DNA of 64,000 nt. Source: Shigella phage JK32. Numbering within the stretch: position 1 is the stretch's first letter; every line of letters starts with the position of its first letter. Positions 17,181 through 59,759 of this stretch are shown piece by piece. The stretch is from sequence record MK962753.1. The stretch is one strand, 5' to 3'. The notes below the pieces were generated by a model. That model made no database searches. It was not told the DNA's origin and saw only the letters and a list, made by a program, of their open reading frames with translations. The position numbers were made by a program, and so were the translations under genes.

Positions 17181-17209
17181 ATTATAGGGGATCGATGATC
17201 CCCTGTCAA
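17181..17209 (-). promoter_or_regulatory. early promoter with palindromic spacer
   Basis: TTGACA, spacer GGGGATCATCGATCCCC (17 nt, perfect palindrome), TATAAT. Confidence 0.7.
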
Positions 17210-17216
17210 CAACTTT

Positions 17217-17735
17217 TTAGTTATTTTTTAATTGCTCATCTTGCAATAAAGCAATCACATGCTGGCGATGTTCTTCCGATTGAGGCACACCGAAAAAGTT
17301 TGTTTTGTAGAAATACTCTAATCGGTCTTCTCGTGTGCTCTCTTCCATCATGATCGCGGGTAGTCCGAGATTTCGGAAACGTCGCTTTTCTGCTGGCGTA
17401 AAATCGCTGTAATACAGCATAGAATCATCATTACCAGCAATGCTAAACTCATCCTTCATGAAGGAGAATATTGCGTTTAAACGCTGTTTACCGTCCACTA
17501 TTTCGATTTCATAGCGAGAGCCATCATCAATCTTAGCCATTGCGATAGCACCAACCGGAAAATCATTAATCAGGTTTTCGATAAACATACGTTTGTTTTC
17601 TGTGTCCCATACTAAAGGACGCTGATAATCTGGGTTCATGTTGATATAGCCATCTTCTAACCATGCATCATAAACAGAGATGACAAAGTTTTTAGTATTG
17701 GTATAGTAACGGCGTTTAGGCGTTAAACGGTTCAT
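17217..17735 (-). CDS. DUF262 / ParB-like nuclease-NTPase domain protein
   Basis: NPDYQRPLVWD ... IVDGKQRL motifs (DGQQR-type); ATG at 17735 with SD AGGAGA; last gene of a four-gene operon. Confidence 0.7.
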   Translation of the reverse strand: MNRLTPKRRYYTNTKNFVISVYDAWLEDGYINMNPDYQRPLVWDTENKRMFIENLINDFPVGAIAMAKIDDGSRYEIEIVDGKQRLNAIFSFMKDEFSIAGNDDSMLYYSDFTPAEKRRFRNLGLPAIMMEESTREDRLEYFYKTNFFGVPQSEEHRQHVIALLQDEQLKNN

Positions 17736-17736
17736 G

Positions 17737-18069
17737 TTATAGTCTCCTGAATGGATCATCACGTAAATCAATATCTTTTAAGAACTCATCCCATGAATGG
17801 CGGATATTGTTCTTAATTCTCCAGATAAGCGCAGGGATTGAACGCTCTCCCATCTGGAAGTAAGGATCATATGATCCGTATGCCCAATATGCTACTACAA
17901 TTCCACAATCAGCGCAATAGTATTCTATTTCACTTGCTGGCGACCAAAGTCCATCAATATGATCGGTGATCTTGCTTTCGATGTTATGGCTATGGCAATC
18001 AGGGCAACGGATGCAATGACCTTGTTTATCGTAATTTGACGTTAGCGAATACTTAAACAATCTCATCAT
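17737..18069 (-). CDS. small Cys/His-rich putative zinc-binding protein
   Basis: 110 aa with CxxC-x2-H and CxxC motifs; start overlaps stop of upstream gene. Confidence 0.6.
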   Translation of the reverse strand: MMRLFKYSLTSNYDKQGHCIRCPDCHSHNIESKITDHIDGLWSPASEIEYYCADCGIVVAYWAYGSYDPYFQMGERSIPALIWRIKNNIRHSWDEFLKDIDLRDDPFRRL

Positions 18070-18782
18070 AGATCCTTATTGGCTTCAAATACTGCCTTTG
18101 CGAATCCTCGCGGGGTAAGTGACCTGATAGTCTTTGTTCTGGTTCCTTTTCCGCCTAGCTTAGAATGCTGTTTGCTGTACCCTTTATTAATCGGCAACGG
18201 TTTCTTTTCTGGCATTATAAAGCCTTGTCCGGTCCATAAGCAAGTCTTTTTCGGGTACATATCACGGGAGGCAATATACTCAGGAAACGTAGGATGTATA
18301 TCATCTTCCGGCAAATAACCGCCATATTCCCACGGATGGAACATGTAATCAGGCTTACGCCACATACTAGAGATAACGCTTACAGGATTCTCTATCATGT
18401 AGGGAACTCCTAGCCATTCACCCAAATAAGCGGTTATTTTAGCTGCCCGTACATCATGAACTTGAATCAATGGTCCTTGCTCTCGTTTCTTTCGTTCAAA
18501 GTGTGCAGCGCCACTAACAGCTAAATTGGTGCACGGTGGGAATGCAAATATAATATCCGGTTTCCCCCATTCAAGGTCCATTGCTCTTTCCAGCCAGTTC
18601 AAATCAATCCATGTGTTTACATAGGTAATGTTTGGATGTTCAAATCGGGTATTATACTTTTTGTATGTGCCGTGGTCGCCATCGTCAGCATTAAAGCAGA
18701 TCACCTTATGACCTGCTTTAGCCCATTCTAGCCCCATTATCCCCGATCCGTCAAAGTTGCAGAATATTAATTTTTGTTTCAC
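18066..18782 (-). CDS. truncated C5-cytosine methyltransferase-like protein (SAM-dependent MTase core, no obvious target-recognition domain)
   Basis: 238 aa; motif I-like FDGSG, motif IV-like FPPCTNLAVSG, motif VI-like ENP in canonical order; GTG start overlapping upstream stop (GTGA). Confidence 0.55.
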   Translation of the reverse strand: MKQKLIFCNFDGSGIMGLEWAKAGHKVICFNADDGDHGTYKKYNTRFEHPNITYVNTWIDLNWLERAMDLEWGKPDIIFAFPPCTNLAVSGAAHFERKKREQGPLIQVHDVRAAKITAYLGEWLGVPYMIENPVSVISSMWRKPDYMFHPWEYGGYLPEDDIHPTFPEYIASRDMYPKKTCLWTGQGFIMPEKKPLPINKGYSKQHSKLGGKGTRTKTIRSLTPRGFAKAVFEANKDL

Positions 18783-19030
18783 GCTGCCCCCATTGGTTTG
18801 ATAGTAACAGAATCTAAAAGACCTTTGTTAGCCAGTTCGCGGCAAGTTTTCAGATCCGTAACTTCCCAGCCAGCCGCAATCAGGTTATCGATGAGGATGT
18901 TAGCAACTTCCTCGCTCATGAAAGAGCACTGTTTGCCGATGGTGTAGCGTACACGCTGTAATTTCAGTTTACGGAAGCCTTTAACGTTCAGGTCTTTAGC
19001 GATTTTCTTTGCGGTTTCGATGTTAGCCAT
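18779..19030 (-). CDS. hypothetical small protein (83 aa), first gene of operon
   Basis: SD GGAGAA; early promoter directly upstream. Confidence 0.6.
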   Translation of the reverse strand: MANIETAKKIAKDLNVKGFRKLKLQRVRYTIGKQCSFMSEEVANILIDNLIAAGWEVTDLKTCRELANKGLLDSVTIKPMGAA

Positions 19031-19070
19031 TGTTTGATTCTCCTAAGTAGTATCTCGTCTTGATGTGTGT

Positions 19071-19098
19071 AGTATAGGGGATCTCCCGATCCCCGTCA
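19071..19098 (-). promoter_or_regulatory. early promoter with palindromic spacer
   Basis: TTGACG, spacer GGGGATCGGGAGATCCCC-type palindrome, TATACT. Confidence 0.65.
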
Positions 19099-19114
19099 AC
19101 AACTTTTTTTAAAA

Positions 19115-19396
19115 TTATTCGTGATTAGTTTCGATGTTGTACATTTTGCACCAGTTCAGCCAATCGCCCAGATCTTGATAGTTGATGCTTTTATCTGCTG
19201 CCATCGTTTTTGTCTTGATACCCATATGTGCGTTATGAGTAAGCATTTTTACAGTGAACTCAATTTTATCGCCTTTAGCTTTAACATCAACCAGTTTGGT
19301 CCACTGGCTACCAGCGCCGCGAATGTTCATACCAACGATGTTTCCGATGTATGCTTCTTTGTTTTTCAGGATTTCGGTTGCTTTGATGAATTTCAT
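19115..19396 (-). CDS. hypothetical small protein (93 aa)
   Basis: ORF with SD GGAGAG; early promoter upstream. Confidence 0.6.
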   Translation of the reverse strand: MKFIKATEILKNKEAYIGNIVGMNIRGAGSQWTKLVDVKAKGDKIEFTVKMLTHNAHMGIKTKTMAADKSINYQDLGDWLNWCKMYNIETNHE

Positions 19397-19429
19397 TTTT
19401 GACTCTCCAGTTCGTTTCGGTATGGGTGT

Positions 19430-19458
19430 ATTATGCTATGTTCTTACTTTGGTGTCAA
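19430..19458 (-). promoter_or_regulatory. early promoter
   Basis: TTGACA, 17 nt, CATAAT; inverted repeat flanks -10; conserved ACACCCATCGAAACGA downstream. Confidence 0.65.
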
Positions 19459-19466
19459 CAACTTTT

Positions 19467-19736
19467 TTAGATATTTTCAGAAATAAATTTTAAAACTTGA
19501 CGTAAATGCTTCTCATCTTTGATAGTCGCCGGAAGTTCTTCTTTTACTTCCTGTGCAAGATAGATATTGCCGTTCCAAGTGAAAGATCCGTCTTCGTTTA
19601 CGCGATAGCTGAACATCCATTCGCAATCATTTTCGATTTCATATACACACAGAAGGGTGTAATCTTCAAAGCTATTGATTTCAAGGTCGAGGCCGTGACG
19701 TTTTGCAAAGTTGGTAGTGGTTTTAGTCAATGCCAT
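19467..19736 (-). CDS. hypothetical small protein (89 aa)
   Basis: ORF with SD AGGAGAA. Confidence 0.6.
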   Translation of the reverse strand: MALTKTTTNFAKRHGLDLEINSFEDYTLLCVYEIENDCEWMFSYRVNEDGSFTWNGNIYLAQEVKEELPATIKDEKHLRQVLKFISENI

Positions 19737-19776
19737 TGTTTGATTCTCCTAAGTAGTATCTCGTTTCGATGGGTGT

Positions 19777-19805
19777 ATTATGATATAGGCGTGATCTGGT
19801 GTCAA
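19777..19805 (-). promoter_or_regulatory. early promoter
   Basis: TTGACA, 17 nt, CATAAT. Confidence 0.65.
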
Positions 19806-19828
19806 CAACTTTTTTAAAATTTAGGCAA

Positions 19829-19852
19829 TAAAAAGCCGACACTAAGGTCGGC
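19829..19852 (-). terminator. rho-independent terminator
   Basis: GCCGACCTTAGTGTCGGC hairpin plus U-run on minus strand. Confidence 0.65.
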
Positions 19853-19857
19853 ACATT

Positions 19858-20112
19858 TTAAAAATTCTTGCTATATATGCAAGCCTCATAATCTAGAGGA
19901 TGACCGCCAATCCTACCAGGCTTAATATTCCAACCGCATCGATATTTGCTGACCATGCTAACCGTTTCGGTTCTTAGAGCATTTCTTTGCAAATCATACC
20001 CCCTAAATTCTTGTCTATAAGGACAGTCCGCTTTGCAAGTTGGCGGTTCTACGTCATTTAGCGGGTCAGAAGCAGTTGGCTTTATTATCAATTCTTTGTT
20101 TGCAATAATCAT
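19858..20112 (-). CDS. hypothetical Cys-rich ORF overlapping 3' end of upstream gene
   Basis: Open frame between 59-aa gene and terminator; start uncertain (ATG at 20112 or 20142); no clear SD. Confidence 0.35.
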   Translation of the reverse strand: MIIANKELIIKPTASDPLNDVEPPTCKADCPYRQEFRGYDLQRNALRTETVSMVSKYRCGWNIKPGRIGGHPLDYEACIYSKNF

Positions 20113-20245
20113 AAGCACATCCCATTGAAGGCAATTTAACATCTTCGCAATAAGTGTTGAATCCGTCAAATACAATCACTTCGTATTTGACTCCATCGGC
20201 GATAGCTTTTACTTTATACCATCCATGCTTGTATAAAATCTTCAT
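20066..20245 (-). CDS. hypothetical small Cys-rich protein (59 aa)
   Basis: ATG at 20245 with SD GAGGGAAAT; track start is TTG. Confidence 0.5.
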   Translation of the reverse strand: MKILYKHGWYKVKAIADGVKYEVIVFDGFNTYCEDVKLPSMGCAYDYCKQRIDNKANCF

Positions 20246-20276
20246 CTTTATTTCCCTCAATCTCGTTTCGATGGGT

Positions 20277-20305
20277 GTATTATGCTATACACAGGATCTA
20301 GTGTC
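20277..20305 (-). promoter_or_regulatory. early promoter
   Basis: TTGACA, 17 nt, CATAAT. Confidence 0.65.
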
Positions 20306-20329
20306 AACAACTTTTTAAAATTTTATGCA

Positions 20330-20353
20330 ATAAAAAAGCCGACACTAAGGTCG
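20330..20353 (-). terminator. rho-independent terminator
   Basis: Same hairpin as 19829..19852 followed by U6 on minus. Confidence 0.65.
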
Positions 20354-20363
20354 GCTAATAAAA

Positions 20364-20669
20364 TCATTTAGACAAATAATCATTCTGTGCAATCCGGTCG
20401 GCATGTTCCGGCGTTACGTCAATTGCAATCACTTTAACGCGCGCTTTCTTGACTGAATTTTCTCGTAGCCAGTGCGTGTGACCGTGCACATTTTTATATT
20501 TTGATGCGGTTTCGAAGGTACGGATCGGACCTGGGTAATCAGCGTAAAGGATCTCTAGGTCATCGGTGATGTAAAAATATACGTTGTAATTACTGTTCTC
20601 TAGCTTAAGCAGAGACTTTCGGAACATTGGGAGATTTTCGCGGGTAAATTCAAAGATATTATCTTTCAT
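20364..20669 (-). CDS. HxHW-family small protein, paralog A
   Basis: 101 aa; motifs YFYITDDL ... HGHTHW ... VIAIDV..ADR shared with five neighbouring ORFs. Confidence 0.65.
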   Translation of the reverse strand: MKDNIFEFTRENLPMFRKSLLKLENSNYNVYFYITDDLEILYADYPGPIRTFETASKYKNVHGHTHWLRENSVKKARVKVIAIDVTPEHADRIAQNDYLSK

Positions 20670-20692
20670 AGTATTATCCTCAATAGTTGGAT

Positions 20693-21007: not shown

Positions 21008-21053
21008 AATTTGATTCTCCTAGTTAGAAAGTGTATCTCGTTTCGATGGGTGT

Positions 21054-21082
21054 ATTATGCAATACACCCGATCTTATGTCAA
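21054..21082 (-). promoter_or_regulatory. early promoter
   Basis: TTGACA, 17 nt, CATAAT; upstream gene stop abuts the -35. Confidence 0.65.
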
Positions 21083-21088
21083 CACTTT

Positions 21089-21367
21089 TTATAAAATAAT
21101 TTTTTGATATTTTTCTATGATGTTCGTGTAATCCACATCAACCGCTATCACCGTTGCTTCGAATCCACCGTTTAGCCAATGGCTATGGTCATGATCGTGA
21201 AAGAAACCAAGACCAGTACGAAGACCTTCTTTATATTCGGCGCGTACATTTAGATCATCATCGATAAACAGATAAAACCATGAATTTTTACTAGGATTGA
21301 TGATACAACCTTTCAGATTAGGGAGAATATCACGACTAAGAATAAACTTATCACCTACTTTGAACAT
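21089..21367 (-). CDS. HxHW-family small protein, paralog B
   Basis: ATG at 21367 with SD GTGAGGA; motifs WFYLFIDDDL ... HDHSHW ... VIAVDV. Confidence 0.65.
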   Translation of the reverse strand: MFKVGDKFILSRDILPNLKGCIINPSKNSWFYLFIDDDLNVRAEYKEGLRTGLGFFHDHDHSHWLNGGFEATVIAVDVDYTNIIEKYQKIIL

Positions 21368-22563: not shown

Positions 22564-22595
22564 TTTGATTCTCCGTTTGTTGTCTTGATGGGAGT

Positions 22596-22624
22596 ATCTT
22601 ACTACTCCCTTTAATCATTGTCAA
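22596..22624 (-). promoter_or_regulatory. early promoter with inverted repeat around -10
   Basis: TTGACA, 17 nt, TAAGAT; GGGAGTA ... TACTCCC inverted repeat flanks the -10. Confidence 0.6.
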
Positions 22625-22627
22625 CGA

Positions 22628-22795
22628 TTATTTGTTAATTTCCGGTGCGTTGCTTGGATAGTAACCTTCTTTAACACCCAGATATTTTGCAACCATTCCG
22701 GTGATCTTCTGTGCTACTACGATATCGAATTTCAGGTAGTCTTCACCGTGGTTTGCTACAATGTATGCTTCGCATTCTGCTTTAGTCTGGAACAT
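22628..22795 (-). CDS. hypothetical small protein (55 aa)
   Basis: ATG at 22795 with SD AGGAGAATC; track ORF starts further upstream. Confidence 0.5.
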   Translation of the reverse strand: MFQTKAECEAYIVANHGEDYLKFDIVVAQKITGMVAKYLGVKEGYYPSNAPEINK

Positions 22796-22829
22796 TTTTG
22801 ATTCTCCTATATCTCGTTGGTATGTGTGC

Positions 22830-22859
22830 ATTATAGGGGATCGGTGACCCCCCTGTCAA
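22830..22859 (-). promoter_or_regulatory. early promoter with palindromic spacer
   Basis: TTGACA, spacer GGGGGGTCACCGATCCCC, TATAAT. Confidence 0.65.
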
Positions 22860-22866
22860 CAACTTT

Positions 22867-23169
22867 TTATTCTTCGTCTTTATCTTTATATGCGTATTTC
22901 ATAAATTTGTCTGCCACTTCGTCCGCGTTTTCAGGTTCTACGTCTGACGCTAGGACAACAGCTAGTTCGGTTTTGTCGTTTCCATCATACCAATGATTAT
23001 GAGTGTCGTTTTCTTCGATATAAAACGAATCATTTGGAGATGGGCGACAATATACGTCTAAATTCCCATCGATATAAAAGATCCAATCCGAATACAAAAT
23101 GATTGTTTTAGCCAGATTTTTATTGTCTCTTACAAAAGGTTCCGCGACAAATAGCTTAGTTTGTTCCAT
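22867..23169 (-). CDS. HxHW-family small protein, paralog E
   Basis: ATG at 23169 with SD GAGGAGA; IFYIDGNL ... HNHW ... AVVLASDV..ENADE. Confidence 0.6.
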   Translation of the reverse strand: MEQTKLFVAEPFVRDNKNLAKTIILYSDWIFYIDGNLDVYCRPSPNDSFYIEENDTHNHWYDGNDKTELAVVLASDVEPENADEVADKFMKYAYKDKDEE

Positions 23170-23377: not shown

Positions 23378-23434
23378 AATATTATCCTCAATTTATGGGA
23401 GAGTATTACCCCTCCCAATGATTGTTATATTACA

Positions 23435-23952: not shown

Positions 23953-23986
23953 GTTTGATTCTCCTAGTTCGTTTCGGTATGTGTGT

Positions 23987-24015
23987 AGTATAGGGGATCA
24001 CCGATCCCCTGTCAA
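23987..24015 (-). promoter_or_regulatory. early promoter with palindromic spacer
   Basis: TTGACA, spacer GGGGATCGGTGATCCCC, TATACT. Confidence 0.65.
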
Positions 24016-24028
24016 CAACTTTTTTGAA

Positions 24029-24505
24029 TTATTTTTCTTGATGCTCGCGCTCGTACTTTTCGAAATAAAATTCTACTGGCTGGTCGTGGATTGACAGTAA
24101 GCCAAAGCGTTTAGCCGCTCGCAACCCCATATTGCGCTGAATGTACTTCTGGAAGTTCTCGCGTATACACTTACGCCAGTATTCTAAGCCCATACAGCTT
24201 TTATAAAGATTGCATTGCACACACGCCGGATTCATGTTATCAAGTATATCATGCTCCGGTTTATGCATTCCTACAACCTTATACTTCCACGATCCATCAT
24301 CATTACGGGCAATTCGTCCATTTTCATCATAGACTACTTTTGAGCGTCGTAATACTGGTTTGATGTGGTCTGCGTGCCAGCGATCCCCTAGTTCCTCGCC
24401 ACAATAGGCACAACGTCCACCATATTTCATTTTCAGGATCTGGCGTTGCTCTTTCTTTGACAATTTTTTAGGTTTAGGGGCTTTCGCCCCTTCATTATCA
24501 CACAT
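24029..24505 (-). CDS. HNH endonuclease
   Basis: 158 aa; CxxC ... HADH ... N ... CxxC HNH-type motifs; start overlaps ligase stop (ATGTGTGA). Confidence 0.75.
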   Translation of the reverse strand: MCDNEGAKAPKPKKLSKKEQRQILKMKYGGRCAYCGEELGDRWHADHIKPVLRRSKVVYDENGRIARNDDGSWKYKVVGMHKPEHDILDNMNPACVQCNLYKSCMGLEYWRKCIRENFQKYIQRNMGLRAAKRFGLLSIHDQPVEFYFEKYEREHQEK

Positions 24506-31809: not shown

Positions 31810-31850
31810 CTTGATACTCCTTAGTAAGTTAGTTTCGTTTCGATGGGGGT

Positions 31851-31879
31851 ATATTACTACCCCCGTTTCAGGCTGTCAA
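31851..31879 (-). promoter_or_regulatory. early promoter with inverted repeat around -10
   Basis: TTGACA, 17 nt, TAATAT; GGGGGTA ... TACCCCC inverted repeat. Confidence 0.6.
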
Positions 31880-32101
31880 CTACTTTTTAATGACAAGTTC
31901 GAATTTTGCTACCTTACGTCCTCGTTTATTGAAAGCAACCCACGGACGGTTTTCAATGTAGAACAATTCTTCACCAATAATGAATACTGGCTGATTGTAA
32001 AGGCGACCCATCAGGTCACGCTGGCGAATGGTAGTAGATTCGTATACTTCGCCTACTACAAAGTGTTTGCTGATAGAGTCGGTGCAGATAAATTTCATTT
32101 T
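31880..32101 (-). CDS. hypothetical small protein (73 aa), MK-x2-C family
   Basis: ATG at 32101 with SD GGAGAATC; paralogous to 34471..34638 and 59493..59699. Confidence 0.55.
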   Translation of the reverse strand, partial: KMKFICTDSISKHFVVGEVYESTTIRQRDLMGRLYNQPVFIIGEELFYIENRPWVAFNKRGRKVAKFELVIKK

Positions 32102-32126
32102 GATTCTCCTTTGTTTCGATGGGGGT

Positions 32127-32155
32127 ATATTACTACCCCCGCTATTCAGTGTCAA
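32127..32155 (-). promoter_or_regulatory. early promoter with inverted repeat around -10
   Basis: TTGACA, 17 nt, TAATAT; near-duplicate of promoter at 31851..31879. Confidence 0.6.
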
Positions 32156-32162
32156 CTACTTT

Positions 32163-32381
32163 TTACTTGTTGTATTCATTCCACCATTGGGTTAGCTTAT
32201 CAATTATTTTTGTGTTTCTATCCAACTTCTCCCACCGTTTTCGAGGGTTTATCAACCGGAATAGGTAAGGTGTACTTGTTAAGTGAACTCGGTCAATGTA
32301 GTGATTGATGTACTGCTTTTCAATTCTAAGTTTCATCTTTTTACGATGAAAATATGCAATGACTTGTTCTTCTGTTTCCAT
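32163..32381 (-). CDS. hypothetical small basic protein (72 aa)
   Basis: SD GGAGGA. Confidence 0.55.
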   Translation of the reverse strand: METEEQVIAYFHRKKMKLRIEKQYINHYIDRVHLTSTPYLFRLINPRKRWEKLDRNTKIIDKLTQWWNEYNK

Positions 32382-32405
32382 ATGTTCCTCCGTTTCGATG
32401 TGCGT

Positions 32406-32434
32406 ATTATGCTATGGTAAGATCCGATTGTCAA
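32406..32434 (-). promoter_or_regulatory. early promoter
   Basis: TTGACA, 17 nt, CATAAT. Confidence 0.65.
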
Positions 32435-32444
32435 CACCCAATAA

Positions 32445-32470
32445 CAAAAAAGTCGCCACTATGGGCGACT
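32445..32470 (-). terminator. rho-independent terminator
   Basis: AGTCGCCCATAGTGGCGACT hairpin then U6 on minus. Confidence 0.65.
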
Positions 32471-32481
32471 TTGAACAAACA

Positions 32482-34638: not shown

Positions 34639-34669
34639 AATAAAATCCTCATTTGTTTTTGATGGTTGT

Positions 34670-34698
34670 ATTATAGCGGGGATTTCTCCCCGCGTCAA
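34670..34698 (-). promoter_or_regulatory. early promoter with palindromic spacer
   Basis: TTGACG, spacer CGGGGAGAAATCCCCGC, TATAAT. Confidence 0.65.
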
Positions 34699-34706
34699 CA
34701 CTTATT

Positions 34707-36950
34707 TTACAGTTTGCAAGATGAACATTCGCTAGCGTCTTCCGTACCATCAGCACCATCACGCACGTTAGCGTAATACAGTGTCTTGAGACCGTAATAT
34801 TGAGCAAACAACATATCATCTAATACATCAGCAATATCGACTTTACCAGTCTTATAAGTGCTTGGATCGTAGGATGTATTGGAACTAATCGCCTGATCTA
34901 CAAACTTCTGCATGATCGCTGCCAGTGTCAGATAAGGCTTGTTACCTTTCTTGATCAGTGTCCAAAGCAGGTCAATAACATCAGCATTATTCTCTACGTT
35001 CGGAATAACCTGATTAAATTGCCCTTCTTTCGATCCTTTAACCGATACAATCCCGCGAGGCGGTTCAATACCGTTTGTGCTGTTAGACACCTGAGAAGAC
35101 GACTCACAAGGCATCAGAGCCGAAAGCGTACTGTTACGAATGCCATATTTTTTCAGGTCTTCGCGCAGTTCTTCCCAATCCATCTCATACACCGGATCAA
35201 CCAGTTCATCTACTGTCTTTTTGTACCAGTCGATAGGCAGTTCACCGCGACCATAACGTGTTTCGTGCATCAGTTCGCAAGCACCCTTCTCTTTAGCCAG
35301 TTGCACACTAGCCTTAATCAGAGCATATTGCAAGCGTTCAAACGTTTTATGCGTAAACTCGTTAGCGTCTTCATATGTGAAGAAATTATCCGCCAGATAC
35401 GATGCAAAGTTAGTCACGCCAACACCCAGAGAGCGACGTTTTTTGGCTGTCAGAGCTTGTTCTACAGGATAATCCTGATAATCTAACAGGTTGTCAAGTG
35501 CACGCACCATAACCATAGCAATGCGTTCTACTTCTTCCATGTTTTCGATATCGAAATTACCTAAAACATATGCTGCCAAAGTACATAGGCTGATCTCTGA
35601 ATCATCACGCCCCATTGGTTTAGTAGGCAGTGCAATTTCGCAACACAGGTTAGATTGTTTAATCGGTGCTACATTGCGAATAAACGCCCCGTGATTGTTC
35701 ATGTTGTCTGTGAATGCTGGATAGATTCGACCAGTGTTAAAACGTTCAATCGCCACCGCTAAAAATAGGTCTTCGGCTTTAACACGAGTTTTACGAACAC
35801 TCGGATCTTTTTCCAGTTTTTCGTAAAGCTGGCGGAAACCTTCCTCATCTCGGAAGTACAGATCCCACAACAAGCCACCCGCAACATCTGGACTAAACAG
35901 AGTAATGTAATCCCGTTTAAGGAATCGCTCTACCATCAGGTTATTAATCTGTACGCCGTAATCAAGATGACGAATGCGGTTATCTTCTACCCCTTTGTTA
36001 TTCTTCAACACAATAAGACTTTCAAATTCTAAATGCCACATTGGGTAATAGAGAGTCGCTGCCCCGCCACGAATACCGCCTTGTGAGCATGACTTAACGG
36101 CAGTCTGAAAATGTTTCCAGAATGGGATAACGCCAGTATGACGAACTTCACCATGCCCGATCTTAGATCCTTCCGCGCGAATCATGCCAGCGTTGATACC
36201 GATACCAGCACGCTTGCTAATATACTTGATGATTGCATTTGCGGTTTCATTAATACCCTGCAATGAATCATCAGATTCGATCACCACACACGAACTAAAT
36301 TGTCGTGTTGGAGTACGCACACCCGCCATAATCGGAGTAGGCAGAGAGATTTGCTTATTCGCAACAGCATTATAAAAATCAATCACATGTTCAAGTCGAT
36401 TTTCTGTCTCTTCTTGATGTAAGCACATACCGATCAACATATACGCAAATTGCGGTGTTTCAATGATTTTCTTAGTGCTGCGATCCTGAACAAGATATTT
36501 CTCTTTTAACTGCATCGCACCCGCATAGGTCATTTTAAAATCAAGTTTATGGTCGATAAATTTCTCCAAATATTCCACTTCTTCACGGGAATACTTTTGC
36601 AGAATTTCACGATCATATTTTCCGGTTGCAATATTACGCTCAATATGGCTGTAAAAATCACTCGGTTGGAATTGACCGTATACTGATTTACGAAGCGCGA
36701 ACATTGCAAGGTTACTTGCTACATATTGATAATCAGGAGTTTCTACAGTGATGTTATCTGCGGCGACCTTAATCAATACTTTCTGGATATCATTGGTAGA
36801 CATACCTTCTGTCAGAAGTGGTTCAACCATATCAAACAATTCATATGGATCAACGTTATGACCTTCGGCTGCCGCTTCCAAAATTTTCATTACTTTTTCT
36901 TTTTCAAACGGAACAGTCAGACCGGAAGACTTAACAACATTTTTAATCAT
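34707..36950 (-). CDS. nrdA: ribonucleotide reductase large subunit
   Basis: 747 aa; N-terminal ATP-cone and catalytic Cys-containing blocks (NLCCEI, PCESS) typical of class Ia R1. Confidence 0.9.
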   Translation of the reverse strand: MIKNVVKSSGLTVPFEKEKVMKILEAAAEGHNVDPYELFDMVEPLLTEGMSTNDIQKVLIKVAADNITVETPDYQYVASNLAMFALRKSVYGQFQPSDFYSHIERNIATGKYDREILQKYSREEVEYLEKFIDHKLDFKMTYAGAMQLKEKYLVQDRSTKKIIETPQFAYMLIGMCLHQEETENRLEHVIDFYNAVANKQISLPTPIMAGVRTPTRQFSSCVVIESDDSLQGINETANAIIKYISKRAGIGINAGMIRAEGSKIGHGEVRHTGVIPFWKHFQTAVKSCSQGGIRGGAATLYYPMWHLEFESLIVLKNNKGVEDNRIRHLDYGVQINNLMVERFLKRDYITLFSPDVAGGLLWDLYFRDEEGFRQLYEKLEKDPSVRKTRVKAEDLFLAVAIERFNTGRIYPAFTDNMNNHGAFIRNVAPIKQSNLCCEIALPTKPMGRDDSEISLCTLAAYVLGNFDIENMEEVERIAMVMVRALDNLLDYQDYPVEQALTAKKRRSLGVGVTNFASYLADNFFTYEDANEFTHKTFERLQYALIKASVQLAKEKGACELMHETRYGRGELPIDWYKKTVDELVDPVYEMDWEELREDLKKYGIRNSTLSALMPCESSSQVSNSTNGIEPPRGIVSVKGSKEGQFNQVIPNVENNADVIDLLWTLIKKGNKPYLTLAAIMQKFVDQAISSNTSYDPSTYKTGKVDIADVLDDMLFAQYYGLKTLYYANVRDGADGTEDASECSSCKL

Positions 36951-39488: not shown

Positions 39489-39519
39489 AATATAATCCTC
39501 TCTTTGTTTCGATATGTAC

Positions 39520-39548
39520 ATTATACACTATTGCGTTACGCTGTCAAC
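39520..39548 (-). promoter_or_regulatory. early promoter
   Basis: TTGACA, 17 nt, TATAAT. Confidence 0.6.
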
Positions 39549-40774
39549 TCTTTTTCAAAAGTTTTTACGATATACATGATAGTGCTCAATTCTGACGGCG
39601 CTACTGTTTCTGTGTAGCCATCCGGCATATCTTCTTTTGAGATATAGGAAGTTTTACCTTTCATCGCTTCCTTGATCTTGTTCTCTAATTCTAAGATCTT
39701 TTGACCATCTTGTAAAGTCAATTCATAAAAGATCTCGTGATCGAATTTAGATTTTGCTGATTGGTTTCTCATACGTTCTCTTGTTGTCAAATTGGTTATT
39801 CCAAATTTAACACCTTCAAAAACGTCTCGTCTTAACAATTTTTGAATATATAATGTTCCTTGTTTTAAACGTTTGTAACCAGATTTCGTACACGAAGGAC
39901 ATCTCTTATGCGTTCTTGTTATGCTATGTATAGTTGGTGTCCAGACGCTACCACATCCACATAACATTGATATTCTTGTTGATGACCCGTTATACTCATC
40001 GATAATTCCATTATATTTGATGTTTTCGGATTTACATATAGAGTATATTATTTTTTCATAGTGCTCTAATGGTTTAATTCTAAGACTTGAATTATTTTTA
40101 TATGCACATATTCTGCAATTATAACCTCTAAGAAAACTAGTTACATCAGTTGTATATGCGTGACCTCCGGTGCATTGTATAGTAAGTTTGGTATCATGTG
40201 TGATATCGTTATCAAGTAAAGTTATTATTTTGTAATTAATTGCTGAACATCTTTTCAAGATTTCTGATTTGTAATACGTTGATTTTTTATTCGTCTCTTG
40301 TATATTTTTTGTGTGACATTGTGGACATCTAGTTCCTTTCTTGGTGAAATGTGTTACTGTTGGTGTATATATGTGTCCATCTAAACATTCAATCATTATT
40401 TTTGTTTTTAATTTATTCGAAGTCCATTCACCAACAACGCCACGATATTTCAACTTTTCGGATTTACATATTTCTATAATTTGTTTCTCTTGTTGTTCTT
40501 TTGTTATATATTCTCGCTTCTTGCTTTTTTGTTTTGCACATTTTGGGCATCTACTGCCTTGTTTTATACTAGATACGATAGGTTCCCAATAATGACCGCA
40601 CTTACAAAGTAAGGCCGTGCGAGTTCTATTCCCGATACATTCACCAATAAACCCCAAAAAGTTTATATCATCGGAAGAACACACATCGTGCATAAATTTT
40701 TCATGTTCTAACATCTTTTTAATTTTGCTGGTGGATAGCATATTGACTATATCTTTAACGAAATATGTTTTCAT
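39536..40774 (-). CDS. zinc-ribbon repeat protein with GIY-YIG/T5orf172-like C-terminus (putative homing-endonuclease-like accessory gene)
   Basis: ATG at 40774 with SD GGAGGA; four ~60-aa repeats C-x-C-G-H ... CPxC; C-terminal KFGITN ... R ... PDGYTET; paralog of 4159..5244. Confidence 0.7.
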   Translation of the reverse strand: MKTYFVKDIVNMLSTSKIKKMLEHEKFMHDVCSSDDINFLGFIGECIGNRTRTALLCKCGHYWEPIVSSIKQGSRCPKCAKQKSKKREYITKEQQEKQIIEICKSEKLKYRGVVGEWTSNKLKTKIMIECLDGHIYTPTVTHFTKKGTRCPQCHTKNIQETNKKSTYYKSEILKRCSAINYKIITLLDNDITHDTKLTIQCTGGHAYTTDVTSFLRGYNCRICAYKNNSSLRIKPLEHYEKIIYSICKSENIKYNGIIDEYNGSSTRISMLCGCGSVWTPTIHSITRTHKRCPSCTKSGYKRLKQGTLYIQKLLRRDVFEGVKFGITNLTTRERMRNQSAKSKFDHEIFYELTLQDGQKILELENKIKEAMKGKTSYISKEDMPDGYTETVAPSELSTIMYIVKTFEKELTA

Positions 40775-40802
40775 TTTTATCCTCCGTTGTTTCGATGAGT
40801 GC

Positions 40803-40830
40803 ATTATACATTATCTCGGATCGGTGTCAA
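40803..40830 (-). promoter_or_regulatory. early promoter
   Basis: TTGACA, 16 nt, TATAAT. Confidence 0.6.
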
Positions 40831-40855
40831 TACCTTTTCATAAAATTTTAGGCAA

Positions 40856-40881
40856 TAAAAAGCCTTCCCGAAGGAAGGCTT
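40856..40881 (-). terminator. rho-independent terminator after gene 32
   Basis: AAGCCTTCCTTCGGGAAGGCTT hairpin then T-run on minus. Confidence 0.65.
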
Positions 40882-41848: not shown

Positions 41849-41890
41849 AATTATACCTCTTTTATACATTAACTATTAATTTGCTAGACT

Positions 41891-41918
41891 ATTATACAGA
41901 TTTAAATTTACTTGTCAA
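41891..41918 (-). promoter_or_regulatory. sigma70-type promoter upstream of gene 32
   Basis: TTGACA, 16 nt, TATAAT. Confidence 0.55.
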
Positions 41919-42595
41919 CTATTTGTTTCGGCTTTTAATTGAGATATTTCTTTACACTCTTTAACTACTTTAACAAATAATGCTCTTGCTTTTGCGGCGT
42001 CAATAACAAGTAGTTTCTTGTACGCCTTCATTTTAACACTATAAGTTTGCCAAATCAAGTCTTTGGCTACCTTGTCGTGTTCGTCGATTATATTTAGAAA
42101 GCTATCTAACAACATAAACGACTCAAACGATATAATCCGATTTTGCAGTAGTTTAAAGATACCGCTAGTTTCGGTTGCGGGATTGTATGTAATTAGCTCT
42201 TTAAGAGTAACCCCGCGTTTCTCGGAGAAGTATACCAGACTTTTAATGTCATCGTCAAATCTTGTTGCTGCATCGGTTATCTTTCCTATGTATTCCATAT
42301 AAAAGCCGTATGCGTCAACATCAGTGATTTCACCTACCCATGCATCGGTATTGGCTACCAGATTGCTTAGGAATAGAAAGTATAATTCTCTTAGATTGTA
42401 CTTTTCCGCTAATTTTGCGAAATAATACTTATCTCTGCGTTTATTGAATGCGGCATCAGACAACCGCATCCTCCAATTGTATTTTACGCAATCATAACGC
42501 CCGTTCATATGAGCTTTCATCATGCAATATAACATATACACAGATTTAGCATTAATTCGCATATCTGGATCTGGAGGAAGACGGTTTCTGATCAT
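41915..42595 (-). CDS. 59: helicase loader gp59
   Basis: Strong match to remembered T4 gp59 (KSVYMLY..HMNG..KYNW..RRDKYYF). Confidence 0.9.
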   Translation of the reverse strand: MIRNRLPPDPDMRINAKSVYMLYCMMKAHMNGRYDCVKYNWRMRLSDAAFNKRRDKYYFAKLAEKYNLRELYFLFLSNLVANTDAWVGEITDVDAYGFYMEYIGKITDAATRFDDDIKSLVYFSEKRGVTLKELITYNPATETSGIFKLLQNRIISFESFMLLDSFLNIIDEHDKVAKDLIWQTYSVKMKAYKKLLVIDAAKARALFVKVVKECKEISQLKAETNS

Positions 42596-56416: not shown

Positions 56417-56428
56417 TGTATAATGTCC

Positions 56429-58415: not shown

Positions 58416-58449
58416 AATATATTCCTCAGTGTTTTGTCTTGATTGGAGT

Positions 58450-58478
58450 ATCTTACTACTCCATTAATCTGGTGTCAA
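58450..58478 (-). promoter_or_regulatory. early promoter with inverted repeat around -10
   Basis: TTGACA, 17 nt, TAAGAT; GGAGTA ... TACTCC inverted repeat. Confidence 0.6.
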
Positions 58479-58485
58479 CTATTTT

Positions 58486-58641
58486 TTAAATTTCTTCTAC
58501 ACTAAAGTCTTCAATGTTGTTGTGCTCGGAGAACGTTGCCAGACCAGCATTCCATGCATCATCCTCAGAGAAGAATACACCGTAACGTTCATATCCTTTA
58601 GCGCCTTCAAATTTAATCATTAATTTGTGAGTATGTTTCAT
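58486..58641 (-). CDS. hypothetical small protein (51 aa)
   Basis: ATG at 58641 with SD GGAGAATC; track ORF extends upstream into the promoter. Confidence 0.45.
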   Translation of the reverse strand: MKHTHKLMIKFEGAKGYERYGVFFSEDDAWNAGLATFSEHNNIEDFSVEEI

Positions 58642-58672
58642 TTTGATTCTCCTTCGTTGTCTTGATGGGTTT

Positions 58673-58701
58673 AGTATAGGGGATCGCCGATCCCCTGTCA
58701 A
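58673..58701 (-). promoter_or_regulatory. early promoter with palindromic spacer
   Basis: TTGACA, spacer GGGGATCGGCGATCCCC, TATACT. Confidence 0.65.
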
Positions 58702-58712
58702 CAACTATTTTT

Positions 58713-58925
58713 TTAATTTTTACCCGCTCGTGCATTAATACGCATTTTCTGCATAGCCATGATCTGGCTTACTGCTTCTTCTTTACGTTCTTGCGTGATA
58801 ACGTGACCAGATTCCGCAAACTCTCCCGCAACTTCTTCTACGATCTCGCGAACTTGAGAACGTCCAAAGATGCGGTTTCCTTCGTAGCTCATAAACTCGG
58901 TTACTACTTGCTCGATAGATTTCAT
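58713..58925 (-). CDS. hypothetical small protein (70 aa)
   Basis: SD GGAGAATC. Confidence 0.55.
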   Translation of the reverse strand: MKSIEQVVTEFMSYEGNRIFGRSQVREIVEEVAGEFAESGHVITQERKEEAVSQIMAMQKMRINARAGKN

Positions 58926-58955
58926 GTGATTCTCCTTTCGTTTCGGTGTGGGAGT

Positions 58956-58984
58956 ATGTTAATACTCCCATTTCTTTACGTCAA
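58956..58984 (-). promoter_or_regulatory. early promoter with inverted repeat around -10
   Basis: TTGACG, 17 nt, TAACAT; GGGAGTAT ... ATACTCCC inverted repeat. Confidence 0.55.
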
Positions 58985-58987
58985 CAA

Positions 58988-59149
58988 CTATTTTAAATTA
59001 TTTTCGACCTTCATCCATTCCGCGTATTCTTGCGCGGCTACTTTCGGATTTAGTCCGTCTTCGTACATTGCTTCAAGTAATTCTTCGTCGGTGGGCTTAT
59101 ACCCTAGATAAGCCTCCACCTGATTTTTCCAAATTTTATACCAGTTCAT
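58988..59149 (-). CDS. hypothetical small protein (53 aa)
   Basis: ATG at 59149; SD GGTGA; coupled to upstream gene stop. Confidence 0.45.
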   Translation of the reverse strand: MNWYKIWKNQVEAYLGYKPTDEELLEAMYEDGLNPKVAAQEYAEWMKVENNLK

Positions 59150-59153
59150 ATTA

Positions 59154-59426
59154 TCACCAGTCAAGAGCGCGTGTCTCTGCGTCTTCCCATGCTTGGTCCA
59201 TAACAGCCTTGAAAACATATTCTAAAGTATCATCTTTAGAGAATCCGAAGACCTTAGACGGAATATCTTCAATTGCTACTCCAGCAACTTCTGCATTACG
59301 CGCTTGGCAATAATGCAACTCTAAGTTATCGAGATAGCGACCGCCTAATTTCTCCATATCATCCCAGCATTTCCAGTAACCTACTTTATCTGCAATTGCC
59401 AACACTTTGCTGTTTTTGTTGCTCAT
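59154..59426 (-). CDS. hypothetical protein (90 aa)
   Basis: ATG at ~59426 with SD GGAGAATC; track start is TTG. Confidence 0.55.
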   Translation of the reverse strand: MSNKNSKVLAIADKVGYWKCWDDMEKLGGRYLDNLELHYCQARNAEVAGVAIEDIPSKVFGFSKDDTLEYVFKAVMDQAWEDAETRALDW

Positions 59427-59455
59427 CTTTGATTCTCCTTTTGTTTGATATGGGA

Positions 59456-59484
59456 GTATATTACTACTCCCATTATTCACTGTC
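59456..59484 (-). promoter_or_regulatory. early promoter with inverted repeat around -10 (approximate coordinates)
   Basis: TTGACA, ~17 nt, TAATAT; GGGAGTA ... TACTCCC inverted repeat. Confidence 0.55.
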
Positions 59485-59492
59485 AATAGATT

Positions 59493-59699
59493 TTATTCGA
59501 TTATTTCAAATTTTGCTACCGGATCACCGTTTCGTTTGGTTGCAGTAAGTTTCTGTTTGTCAAAGTAAAACCAAATATAGTCACCATGAACTACATCAAA
59601 TGTGTTTCCGCTATTGTCCGTGAATACATCAACATCATAATCACACCCAACACTAAAGCTATAATTGATGTGATCGGTTTCAATGCAACGTACTTTCAT
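59493..59699 (-). CDS. hypothetical small protein (68 aa), MK-x2-C family
   Basis: ATG at 59699 with SD AGGAGATTC; resembles 31880..32101 (MKVRCIETD... versus MKFICTDS..., C-terminal VAKFE). Confidence 0.5.
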   Translation of the reverse strand: MKVRCIETDHINYSFSVGCDYDVDVFTDNSGNTFDVVHGDYIWFYFDKQKLTATKRNGDPVAKFEIIE

Positions 59700-59730
59700 T
59701 TTTGAATCTCCTTTTTGTTTCACTGTGTGT

Positions 59731-59759
59731 ATTATGCAATGCTGGATTATGGAAGTCAA
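59731..59759 (-). promoter_or_regulatory. early promoter
   Basis: TTGACT, 17 nt, CATAAT. Confidence 0.6.

Follow-up and report, generated by a model that had tools for sequence, protein, structure and literature searches.

Early promoter cassettes in the window

What are the near-consensus promoters, many of them built around inverted repeats, that recur ahead of small minus-strand genes of Shigella phage JK32, and what would their hairpins do? The window, i.e., the whole 64,000-nucleotide stretch analyzed here (record MK962753.1), belongs to a Krischvirus (an RB49/phi1-like T4-type coliphage) and is 93 to 97% identical to published genomes. The cassettes are very probably promoter-early stem-loops (PeSLs), composite regulatory units known from phi1 and RB49, in which they were first defined by Arbiol et al. 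2010 (PMC2839356) and in which promoter activity, terminator activity, and mini-circle formation were demonstrated (PMC2839356). The initial annotation had compared them to such cassettes of T4-type phages, which take part in modular gene shuffling, a comparison that was correct and applies literally: genus (phi1/RB49) and anatomy are the same, the cassettes are orthologous to published PeSLs on sequence comparison, and the breakpoint test described below was positive. The system is an already published one, correctly rediscovered, and not a new one. What is new here is minor (complementarity between hairpins and terminators, and GATC recurring within spacers); that complementarity, a sense-strand G·T bias, and the mapping of crossovers go beyond PMC2839356. 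Orthologous sites carry annotated promoters in the GEC-3S record and, at one site, the label "early RB49 promoter" in NC_005066, and the G2248 record places a predicted terminator inside the cassette at an orthologous site.

In total, homologous cassettes number 22 in the window; every one is on the minus strand (to which every feature described below belongs), and the plus strand contains none of this family. In order, each has an AT-rich tract, TTGACA, a 16- to 18-nucleotide (nt) spacer, a TATAAT-like box, and the conserved start region ACNCNCAT, after which an unstructured leader leads to GGAG and ATG. Both the promoters and the conserved leader proposed earlier were recovered: a minus-strand sigma70-type promoter is present at all 16 coordinates listed initially, exact TTGACA-N15-19-TATAAT was found 7 times (0.17 expected), and the leader 16-mer ACACCCATCGAAACGA was matched 10 times with ≤3 mismatches, on the minus strand only (0.41 expected). 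A profile built from the 16 listed sites recovered those sites (E values of 4e-12 to 7e-18) and additionally detected 32434, 40830, 39547, and, weakly, 59759; two consensus promoters (14794 and 41918), added by eye and pattern scan, brought the total to 22. The statement that cassettes precede most small minus-strand genes was too strong, as only 9 of the 23 genes in the 16.9- to 24.5-kb region have a cassette of their own, the remaining small genes there being arranged in short operons. The RB49 early consensus, which agrees with 5'-end mapping and has C at -3 to -1 (PMC1524935), places +1 at the invariant A36, directly past the 3' arm of the hairpin. A literature search found no 5'- or 3'-end mapping for Krischvirus.

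Hairpins within the promoters

A strong hairpin lies between -35 and -1 in 14 of the 22 cassettes. Published PeSLs fall into the same positional subclasses, in which the stem-loop separates -35 from -10, overlaps the -10, or is upstream (PMC2839356). The two principal classes described initially, palindromic spacers (class a) and repeats bracketing the -10 (class b), stood at six of six sites each, with MFE values of -10 to -15 kcal/mol. Class a includes cassettes 17145..17229 (promoter 17181-17209; spacer hairpin 17186-17204, AGGGGATC-ATC-GATCCCCT), which precedes a 70-aa gene (16932-17144); 19031..19119 (promoter 19071-19099; hairpin 19077-19094); 22796..22879, whose spacer is 18 nt long (promoter 22830-22859; hairpin 22836-22853, containing one G·T pair); 23953..24035 (promoter 23987-24015; hairpin 23992-24010); 58642..58721 (promoter 58673-58701; hairpin 58678-58696); and, as class a', 34639..34718 between nrdA and ORF233 (promoter 34670-34698; spacer hairpin 34676-34693, GCGGGGA-GAAA-TCCCCGC; MFE -15.1, z -6.7). 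The cassette with its promoter at 22859 is the ortholog of RB49 PeSL206/205, an experimentally tested promoter whose lacZ fusion yielded ~13,000 Miller units (PMC2839356), and hairpins of class a match the stem-loop tested as a terminator in PeSL211/210, a close class relative. Class b consists of cassettes 22564..22644 (promoter 22596-22624; hairpin 22590-22609, GGGAGTA-N6-TACTCCC, around the -10 and ending at -1), 31810..31899 (promoter 31851-31879; hairpin 31845-31864, GGGGGTA..TACCCCC), 32099..32175 (promoter 32127-32155; hairpin 32121-32140), 58416..58498 (promoter 58450-58478; hairpin 58444-58463, TGGAGTA..TACTCCA), 58926..59004 (promoter 58956-58984; hairpin 58949-58970), and 59427..59506 (promoter 59458-59486; hairpin 59450-59473).

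The proposed third class (c), with GTGTAT..ATACAC around CATAAT, survived only in part. Cassette 21008..21102 (promoter 21054-21082) does have a 9-bp hairpin around its -10 (21048-21069, GGGTGTATT-GCAT-AATACACCC; MFE -14.3), and cassette 20246..20356 (promoter 20279-20307) has a weak, nonsignificant GTGTAT..ATACAC repeat (20275-20292; z -1.1). No repeat was found in cassettes 19397..19478 (promoter 19430-19458, CATAAT; MFE 0) and 19737..19852 (promoter 19777-19805; no internal hairpin). At 19777 and 20277, a canonical terminator directly upstream of the -35 (19835-19852, with T-run, and 20337-20356, respectively) is present instead.

Among the cassettes beyond the initial list, 14734..14814, outside the range covered initially and flanked by alt and the Alt-like ORF183 homologue, has a promoter (TTGACT-17-TATACT, 14766-14794) that is also annotated at the orthologous position in the GEC-3S record, and a hairpin around the -10 (14759-14784; MFE -18.9, z -5.3) that is followed by TTTTCTGT, making it a full intrinsic terminator. 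Internal hairpins are lacking in 32382..32472 (promoter 32406-32434, CATAAT; profile E value of 9e-6) and 59700..59800 (promoter 59731-59759, TTGACT..CATAAT; E value of 0.03), which have canonical terminators upstream (32449-32472 and 59778-59800), as does 40775..40881 (promoter 40803-40830; terminator 40860-40881; E value of 3e-7). Cassette 39489..39567, with a 16-nt spacer (promoter 39520-39547; E value of 1e-3), has no significant hairpin, and the end of the upstream gene falls inside it. The consensus early promoter upstream of gene 32 (41891-41918, within 41849..41938), whose ortholog is the one labeled in NC_005066, lacks a hairpin, and its leader is not related to that of the family. 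Finally, a relic at 23397..23416, between two genes and also conserved in Phi1, retains a hairpin (GGGAG..CTCCC) and a -10-like TAATAC without a -35, comparable to the "half" or degraded PeSLs described by Comeau et al. 2014 (PMC4122927).

Hairpins and terminators

The distribution of ordinary terminators suggests what the hairpins are for. None of the 14 hairpin-bearing cassettes has an upstream terminator, versus five of the eight others (Fisher P = 0.002), where an ordinary stem and T-run lie directly upstream of the cassette; the upstream stop codon is 0 to 17 nt from the -35 in hairpin-bearing cassettes versus 47 to 70 nt where the terminator is separate. Three cassettes (19458, 39547, and 41918) have neither.

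A cassette fills the entire 65- to 110-nt intergenic gap, and the gene upstream of it has its stop codon within the AT-rich tract. By analogy with orthologs in the literature, the cassette's near-consensus sigma70 promoter would be read by unmodified host RNA polymerase directly after infection; the conserved ACNCNCAT region would set +1 at the invariant A, and the unstructured A-rich leader has GGAGAATCAAA as the ribosome-binding site ahead of the ATG. Every hairpin is located ahead of +1 and is therefore absent from RNA started at the same cassette; it would form only in read-through RNA from promoters further upstream, where it may terminate or attenuate transcription, so that the small genes would be insulated from their neighbors. 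Embedding the hairpin in the promoter would spare ~45 nt of separate terminator. Terminator function was demonstrated for one class a stem-loop, PeSL211/210 (Arbiol et al. 2010, PMC2839356), which lowered downstream lacZ as strongly as rrnB T1.

Rho-independent terminators share with these elements a short GC-rich hairpin at a gene end, and textbook examples in the window are 14794, whose hairpin has a full T-run, 19835-19852, 20337-20356, 32449-32472, 40860-40881, and 59778-59800. In contrast, the class a and class b hairpins lack a T-run and are interleaved with the -35 and -10 hexamers of the next promoter. Class a hairpins are followed only by UAUAAU or UAUACU, and those of class b and most of class c are followed by AUCAAGAC or AUCGAAAC, without a U-tract; a stem-plus-T-run scan flagged none of class a, class b, or most of class c. 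Because the U-tract is missing, efficient intrinsic termination is putative for most in-promoter hairpins, the published support coming from a single class a stem-loop.

Pairing is well preserved: in class b, 96% of the stem cells form pairs, with one pair appearing as AU (14), GC (7), or GU (4) and another, the outer pair of 58444-58463, as U-A in the window and G-C in orthologs. The GGGTGTAT/ATACACCC arms of cassette 21008..21102 correspond to GGGGATAT..ATATCCCC in relatives, so that two pairs have changed in a compensatory way. Where a single position departs from Watson-Crick pairing, the sense strand has G·T (five distinct sites) and never A·C. Independent events behind the covariation are few, and both arms could be copied at once by gene conversion from one cassette to another.

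These observations bear on three other readings of the inverted repeats. That they are by-products of chance or of base composition, the spacers of a repeated promoter being GC-rich, has next to no probability: cassette copies are homologous and so are not independent observations, and the class c repeat is missing at two of its four listed sites, but z scores at the 14 sites are -2.7 to -6.7 against shuffles in which the hexamers were kept, 11 of the 43 perfect, GC-rich hairpins found across the 64 kb fall within the 1.1 kb (1.7%) of cassette cores (P = 1.3e-10), and differing stem sequences all pair; the shuffle and enrichment tests refute this origin. It is also highly improbable, in our estimation, that the palindromes are operators to which a dimeric regulator of phage or host origin binds, switching the early promoters off or on, as the initial annotation had offered as an alternative. 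A perfect GGGGATC-N3-GATCCCC palindrome does occupy the spacers of five promoters, class a is highly similar across copies and genomes, and Arbiol et al. speculated on protein binding to GGGG...CCCC (PMC2839356). However, there are at least five distinct stem sequences (GGGGATC, GGGGAGG, CGGGGAG, GGGAGTA/GGGGGTA, and GGGTGTAT/GGGGATAT) in three different registers with respect to the promoter, with loops differing in length and sequence; a sequence-specific site would not tolerate the compensatory and G·T changes that keep the pairing, the confinement of G·T to the sense strand points to a single-stranded form, and palindrome-less cassettes carry a terminator instead (five of eight). Unlikely, yet deserving more credit than either of these, is a post-transcriptional role, in which nonterminating hairpins would act on read-through RNA as 3' exonuclease barriers or processing sites that set upstream message stability. 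Such a role would fit the lack of a U-tract in most hairpins, the G·T bias (structure at the level of RNA or the sense strand), the retention of the promoterless relic hairpin at 23397-23416, and the RegB-like GGAG site in the leaders, which suggests that early mRNA decay is probably under active control. Against it stand the rrnB T1-like effect of the one class a stem-loop on lacZ (PMC2839356) and the complementary distribution with true terminators, which suggests equivalent function. This reading overlaps that of the hairpins as insulators, and the two are not mutually exclusive.

Gene gain and loss at cassettes

A comparison of cassette positions with gene-content breakpoints, as had been suggested initially, was positive: of 14 indels or replacements between the window and eight related genomes, 9 are at cassettes (P = 5e-3 with 22 of 78 gene junctions as the null; P = 8e-9 for uniform placement) and 5 lie away from them. 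The window lacks ORF186, 189.1, 191, 210, and 226 and has ORF195/196 and a private 412-aa gene. At 17145..17229, five relatives have ORF186 between two cassettes; at 19031..19119, relatives have ORF191 (RB49 also ORF192), with two alignments overlapping by 90 nt across the cassette; at 23953..24035, where PeSL mini-circles were demonstrated (PMC2839356), they have ORF210 (and ORF211); and at 31810..31899, ORF226 is additional in Phi1, RB49, RB49-OZ, and G2248. Segment 19853-20259, missing from Phi1, G2248, ECD7, and GEC-3S, is bordered by cassettes 19737..19852 (downstream, low-coordinate edge) and 20246..20356 (upstream, high-coordinate edge). In the same orientation, cassettes 39489..39567 and 40775..40881 flank the 39556-40771 replacement, and 59427..59506 and 59700..59800 flank the 59460-59695 gene, missing from RB49, kvi, and MIZ4. 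MIZ4 also lacks the gene between 58416..58498 and 58642..58721, and both Brandy and MIZ4 have ~0.5 kb extra at 58926..59004.

Alignments at cassette junctions overlap by 36 to 106 nt, and crossovers fall inside conserved blocks (-10/+1/leader or AT-rich/-35). With ~100 nt of near-identical sequence in some 20 copies of one orientation in the window, general recombination of the phage may cross over between copies and delete, insert, or swap the intervening gene; the comparative signature of such recombination is seen here, from which we infer the mechanism. That the hairpins are instead attC-like signals, folded DNA recognized by a dedicated recombinase that moves genes as mini-circles, seems very unlikely, even though ORF192 and ORF210 were detected as mini-circles carrying a single chimeric PeSL (PMC2839356), most indels are at cassettes, and a cassette-plus-gene unit is paralogous at two sites (window 22628-22868 shares ~83 to 85% identity with the ORF191 unit found in relatives). 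Crossovers are scattered over the AT-rich/-35 region, spacer, -10/+1, and leader, with no fixed point relative to the hairpin; hairpin-less cassettes are breakpoints too (19805/20307, 39547/40830, and 59759); those who described RB49 and phi1 identified no integrase (PMC2839356); and T4-type recombination requires <50 bp of homology (PMC2839356, citing Singer et al. 1982).

Relation to known systems

All parts of the phi1/RB49 PeSLs (Arbiol, Comeau, Kutateladze, Adamia, and Krisch 2010, PMC2839356) match the window cassettes: the stop codon in an AT-rich tract, near-consensus sigma70 promoter, G-run/C-run stem-loop, SD, and ATG, as well as hyperplastic regions upstream of ORFans, orthologous copies, and association with indels. 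There is no essential difference, the window having its own set of occupied sites. The PeSLs/PmSLs of T4/PST and KVP40/nt-1 (Comeau, Arbiol, and Krisch 2014, PMC4122927) share the concept and the indel association but differ in promoter consensus (TTTACW, TTGYVH) and in having AT-richer stems upstream of the promoter (PMC4122927), and they have no sequence homology with the window cassettes. Integron gene cassettes (attC) and phage "morons" likewise comprise small, self-expressed accessory genes bounded by a repeated element, with circular intermediates reported. Unlike integron cassettes, those of the window involve no integrase, have variable crossover points within homology, and include the promoter itself in the repeat; morons, for their part, are not believed to move via regulatory flanks (PMC2839356).

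Early promoter cassettes and their relation to published PeSLs

The region from 17000 to 24500 is 93 to 97% identical to Krischvirus genomes (RB49, Phi1, GEC-3S, and JSE-like phages), with phage Brandy as the top match (97.3%), and the regions at 14 to 38 kb and 56.5 to 61.5 kb are likewise Krischvirus-like. Since no identical record was found among the matches, JK32 represents a further member of this genus. The window is colinear with phi1 and RB49 (92 to 98%) and shares their gene order: baseplate genes, alt, an ORFan-rich stretch, DNA ligase, gp31, cd, pseT, rnlA, denA, nrdB, nrdA, td, frd, gene 32, and gene 59 to rnh, with a second ORFan stretch ahead of gene 52. The baseplate hub and tail-tube module (gp51 to gp54 region; 6073-13350) is only 73 to 79% identical to all seven relatives, compared to 96 to 98% for the adjoining early region, which suggests that this structural module may have been swapped in whole from a more distant lineage.

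A minus-strand sigma70-type promoter is present at all 16 coordinates at which the initial annotation had placed one. Exact matches to TTGACA-N15-19-TATAAT occur seven times in the window (0.17 expected), and near-matches to the leader 16-mer occur 10 times (0.41 expected), all on the minus strand. A profile HMM, trained on these 16 sites and searched in the window and its relatives, added cassettes 32434, 40830, 39547, and, weakly, 59759 (named here by their high-coordinate promoter ends); counting cassette 14794, between alt and the Alt-like ORF183 homologue, and the gene 32 promoter at 41918, the total comes to 22, of which 18 were recovered by the profile. Their hexamers match the consensus at 9 to 12 of 12 positions, mostly at 10 to 12, with spacers of 16 to 18 nt. 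All 22 cassettes lie on the early-gene strand, as do 151 of 151 profile hits obtained from the window together with eleven stretches of relatives, and the profile search found no cassette in the late-gene blocks at 1 to 13 kb and 46 to 55 kb. The neighboring genes are annotated as hypothetical. That most small genes are preceded by such an element was an overstatement, with only 9 of the 23 genes in 16.9 to 24.5 kb having a cassette of their own.

Each cassette makes up the whole intergenic region. The tract before the -35 element is AT rich (AAAAAGTTG), the stop codon of the upstream gene lies 0 to 17 nt from the -35 element in hairpin-bearing cassettes, and GGAG or GAGG followed by ATG is found 24 to 46 nt past the -10 element at 22 of 22 sites. 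Structure prediction leaves the leaders, from +1 to ATG, unfolded (minimum free energy [MFE], 0 to -1.7); positions A30, C31, C33, C35, A36, and T37 of the -10/start block are 86 to 97% conserved across all classes. The mapping of early 5' ends in RB49 (Desplats et al. 2002), to the extent that it is cited in PMC1524935, would place +1 at the invariant A36; hairpins in the spacer between -35 and -10 (class a) would then span about -30 to -14 and those bracketing the -10 element (class b), together with class c, about -20 to -1. Whatever the class, the cassette's own transcript never includes the hairpin.

The likeness to the promoter-early stem-loops (PeSLs) of T4-type phages, noted in the initial annotation, is correct, down to the genus, the constituent parts, and orthologous copies. 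PeSLs were named in phi1 and RB49 by Arbiol et al. 2010 (PMC2839356), who found 52 and 51 copies per genome, respectively, mostly in hyperplastic regions ahead of ORFans, and defined five subclasses by stem-loop position, the commonest being "between -35 and -10" and "overlapping -10". In the same study (PMC2839356), a lacZ fusion of PeSL206/205 yielded about 13,000 Miller units, and lacZ downstream of the PeSL211/210 stem-loop was reduced to about the same extent as by rrnB T1. Gene differences between phi1 and RB49 fell mostly at PeSLs there, and ORF192 and ORF210 were detected as mini-circles. The concept was later widened to T4/PST and KVP40/nt-1 (Comeau et al. 2014; PMC4122927). Like those of phi1 and RB49, the window cassettes combine a promoter, an AT-rich tract with a stop codon, a stem-loop, and a Shine-Dalgarno sequence with a start codon, and they share early-region strand and location, sequence homology, and coincidence with indels. 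Side-by-side comparison with PeSL206/205, PeSL211/210, and PeSL192/191 identified cassette 22859 as the ortholog of PeSL206/205 and the class a hairpins as being of the PeSL211/210 type; promoter and terminator activity in vivo and the formation of mini-circles have been published for orthologs only. A search with one 96-nt cassette returned 468 places in 58 records, all Krischvirus, and further homologs were present in two Krischvirus-like IMG/VR contigs. As judged from sequence matches, the family appears confined to Krischvirus.

The observation is real and statistically robust, and the element is already known from the same genus. Few concrete mechanisms have been put forward for how large lytic phages gain or lose accessory genes without regulatory damage, and PeSLs are among them; the window repeats the pattern in a genome outside the original study, against eight relatives instead of one. 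The small additions made here leave the general picture unchanged; mutual exclusivity of hairpin and terminator, a wobble bias consisting of sense-strand G·T only, and crossovers in conserved blocks rather than at the hairpin sharpen the published model, and a recurrent spacer GATC and a RegB-like leader come on top of these.

Hairpins within the promoters

When each segment from -35 to +15 was folded and compared with shuffles preserving both hexamers, 14 of the 22 cassettes showed a strong hairpin (MFE, -10 to -18.9 kcal/mol; z, -2.7 to -6.7). These include six of six in class a and six of six in class b, upholding both classes as first described; the remaining two are 21082 (class c) and 14794. 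By placement, the stem-loop is internal (in the spacer or enclosing the -10 element) in 14 cassettes, upstream in 5, and absent in 3. Enrichment of inverted repeats was likewise borne out: cassette cores, which add up to 1.1 kb, hold 11 of the 43 perfect GC-rich hairpins of the 64 kb (P = 1.3e-10).

The third proposed class, defined by GTGTAT..ATACAC at 19430, 19777, 20277, and 21054, held only in part: a strong hairpin was found at 21054 (cassette 21082), the repeat at 20277 was weak and failed to reach significance, and no repeat is present at 19430 or 19777. With only 68% of cells paired, we rejected this heterogeneous set as a single hairpin class. The sequence common to the four sites, CATAATACACCC, corresponds to the conserved block of -10 element and start, as does their shared ATACACCC; this block is found in all classes. 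The conserved block past the -10 element, ACNCNCAT, also serves as the 3' arm of class b and c hairpins; hairpins are restricted to cassettes whose spacer has evolved or acquired a complementary 5' arm. Rfam gave zero matches at gathering score across the whole window.

Between two genes at 23397-23416 (minus strand), we observed a relic-like hairpin (GGGAG..CTCCC), kept in Phi1, with a -10-like TAATAC and without a -35 element, which looks like a decayed cassette that has retained its stem-loop.

Termination, operator function, and conservation of pairing

Of the eight cassettes that lack an internal hairpin, five have a textbook stem plus T-run terminator directly upstream of the AT-rich tract (19835-19852, 20337-20356, 32449-32472, 40860-40881, and 59778-59800, all on the minus strand), and in these five the upstream stop codon is 47 to 70 nt away; the other three have neither element. 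A stem plus T-run scan detected no separate upstream terminator in any of the 14 hairpin-bearing cassettes (Fisher P = 0.002). Most simply, the hairpin within the promoter would stand in for a separate terminator by acting on read-through RNA, at a saving of about 45 nt. The same scan flagged none of the class a or class b hairpins as an intrinsic terminator with a U-tract, their tails being TATAAT/TATACT or ATCAAGAC/ATCGAAAC; a GC-rich hairpin with an immediate U-tract is found only in the five upstream elements and in 14794, whose hairpin encloses the -10 element and has a T-run as well. Class b hairpins may terminate transcription, pause the polymerase, or merely protect 3' ends. The termination assay so far concerns a single class a stem-loop (PMC2839356), and a literature search for transcript-end mapping in Krischvirus found nothing relevant.

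The palindromic spacers had also been proposed as operators for a dimeric regulator, a possibility on which 101 distinct cassette variants from nine genomes have a direct bearing. These variants comprise at least five different stem sequences, set in three registers, and thus no one palindrome at a fixed position; it is pairing rather than sequence that is conserved, and on these grounds we consider an operator very unlikely. In class b, 96% of cells are paired, with one pair being AU in 14, GC in 7, and GU in 4. The stem of 58478 has U-A in the window versus G-C in orthologs, and that of 21082 reads GGGTGTAT/ATACACCC in the window versus GGGGATAT/ATATCCCC in orthologs, with ECD7 carrying a G·T intermediate. 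Such covariation is supportive but not decisive, as the events are few and gene conversion between copies could carry both arms together. Among stems with a single non-Watson-Crick position, sense-strand G·T occurs at five distinct cassette sites (e.g., 22836-22853 in the window) and A·C at zero (sign test, 0.03). This bias would fit a structure formed in the sense RNA or the sense single strand; it does not fit a symmetric cruciform or a palindrome recognized by a protein as duplex DNA.

Gene-content differences at cassettes

We compared 13.8 to 46.9 kb with Brandy, Phi1, RB49 (two records), G2248, ECD7, and GEC-3S and 54.5 to 63 kb with RB49, Brandy, kvi, and MIZ4, counting each distinct indel or replacement of at least 130 bp as an event. 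Across the eight relatives, 9 of 14 events fall at cassettes, in keeping with the gene shuffling invoked in the initial annotation (P = 5e-3 under a null of equal chance at about 78 gene junctions, 22 of them with a cassette; P = 8e-9 for uniform placement). Relatives carry ORF186 at 17142-17185 (cassette 17209), ORF191/192 at 19033-19122 (19099), ORF210/211 at 23937-24042 (24015), and ORF226 at 31798-31892 (31879), while the window carries ORF195/196 at 19853-20259 (19805 and 20307). A replacement spans 39556-40771 (39547 and 40830), the gene at 58494-58689 (58478 and 58701) is missing from MIZ4, Brandy and MIZ4 have about 0.5 kb more at 58985-58992 (58984), and the gene at 59460-59695 (59486 and 59759) is missing from RB49, kvi, and MIZ4. 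The five events away from cassettes are the absence from the window of ORF189.1 at 18.77 kb (18766-18781; 16-nt junction overlap), an extra 266 bp in G2248 at 23.755 kb (position 23755), an HNH homing endonuclease inserted beside gene 31 in ECD7 at 27.05 kb (27042-27068), a replacement of 0.3 to 0.65 kb past the holin gene at 55.77 to 56.4 kb (55771-56426), and an inner edge at 39.81 kb.

At cassette junctions, the two alignments overlap by 36 to 106 nt, indicating that the extra gene of the longer genome is bordered by a copy on either side, where the shorter genome has one chimeric copy. Alignment of chimeric copies to their two parents placed the switch point in the -10/+1/leader block in five cases and in the spacer and the AT-rich/-35 block in one case each. 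To judge from these alignments, the spread fits exchange driven by homology and speaks against site-specific crossover at a fixed point. An integron attC-type site is very unlikely, given that crossovers lie in differing cassette blocks and that hairpin-less cassettes also serve as junctions. The describers of RB49 and phi1 reported no integrase (PMC2839356).

A small gene plus cassette at 22627-22868, compared with Phi1 L003 13597-13836, is about 83 to 85% identical to the ORF191 unit, which relatives carry at the 19099 site, and paralogous copies of this gene-plus-cassette unit are thus found at two positions. Between cassettes 40830 and 39547 (39536-40774, minus strand) lies a 412-aa gene private to the window among the eight genomes compared; its product combines a CapR homology domain (E = 1e-15) with repeated zinc-finger motifs of the treble-clef type, and its locus holds the ORF240 endonuclease in RB49 and Phi1 and about 316 bp in others.

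Recurrent GATC in spacers and RegB-like leaders

GATC is present in 10 of 22 promoter spacers (cassettes 17209, 19099, 19805, 20307, 21082, 22859, 24015, 32434, 40830, and 58701) against about 0.1 expected per spacer, a comparison whose P value is inflated by the homology of the copies. It mostly sits at a fixed place, about 10 nt from the start of the -35 element, in hairpin-bearing and hairpin-less cassettes alike, with a second copy in class a, and recurs in 48 of the 101 cassette variants of relatives. Window-wide, there was no signal of GATC avoidance or excess (351 observed, 339 expected). A link between the spacer GATC and Dam methylation is possible, and in class b the -10 hexamer lies within the hairpin loop; taken together, these features mean that fully Dam-methylated, supercoiled injected DNA might fire the promoters differently from newly replicated DNA. 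That the in-promoter elements go beyond space-saving termination and render early promoters responsive to DNA state we consider very improbable; if true, it would amount to methylation- or structure-based early shut-off in a phage without MotA or a middle mode. Annotations of relatives call the ORF at 18066-18782 (minus strand) a DNA (C-5 cytosine) methyltransferase or Dcm; checked for a link to the GATC sites, this methyltransferase-like ORF gave no Pfam match at an E value below 0.01.

The ribosome-binding region GGAGAATCAAA, found in at least 10 cassette leaders, matches 10 or 11 of the 11 positions of GGAGRAYARAA, the cleavage consensus of T4 RegB/S1 (PMC1702504). Examples, all on the minus strand, are at 19043, 19749, 21020, 22574, 22807, 23964, 32109, 40785 (reading GGAGGATAAAA in place of GGAGAATCAAA), 58652, and 59438. 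On the strength of this match, early messages with such leaders are probably RegB targets; in the window, the minus strand carries 14 occurrences of the pattern and the plus strand 2.
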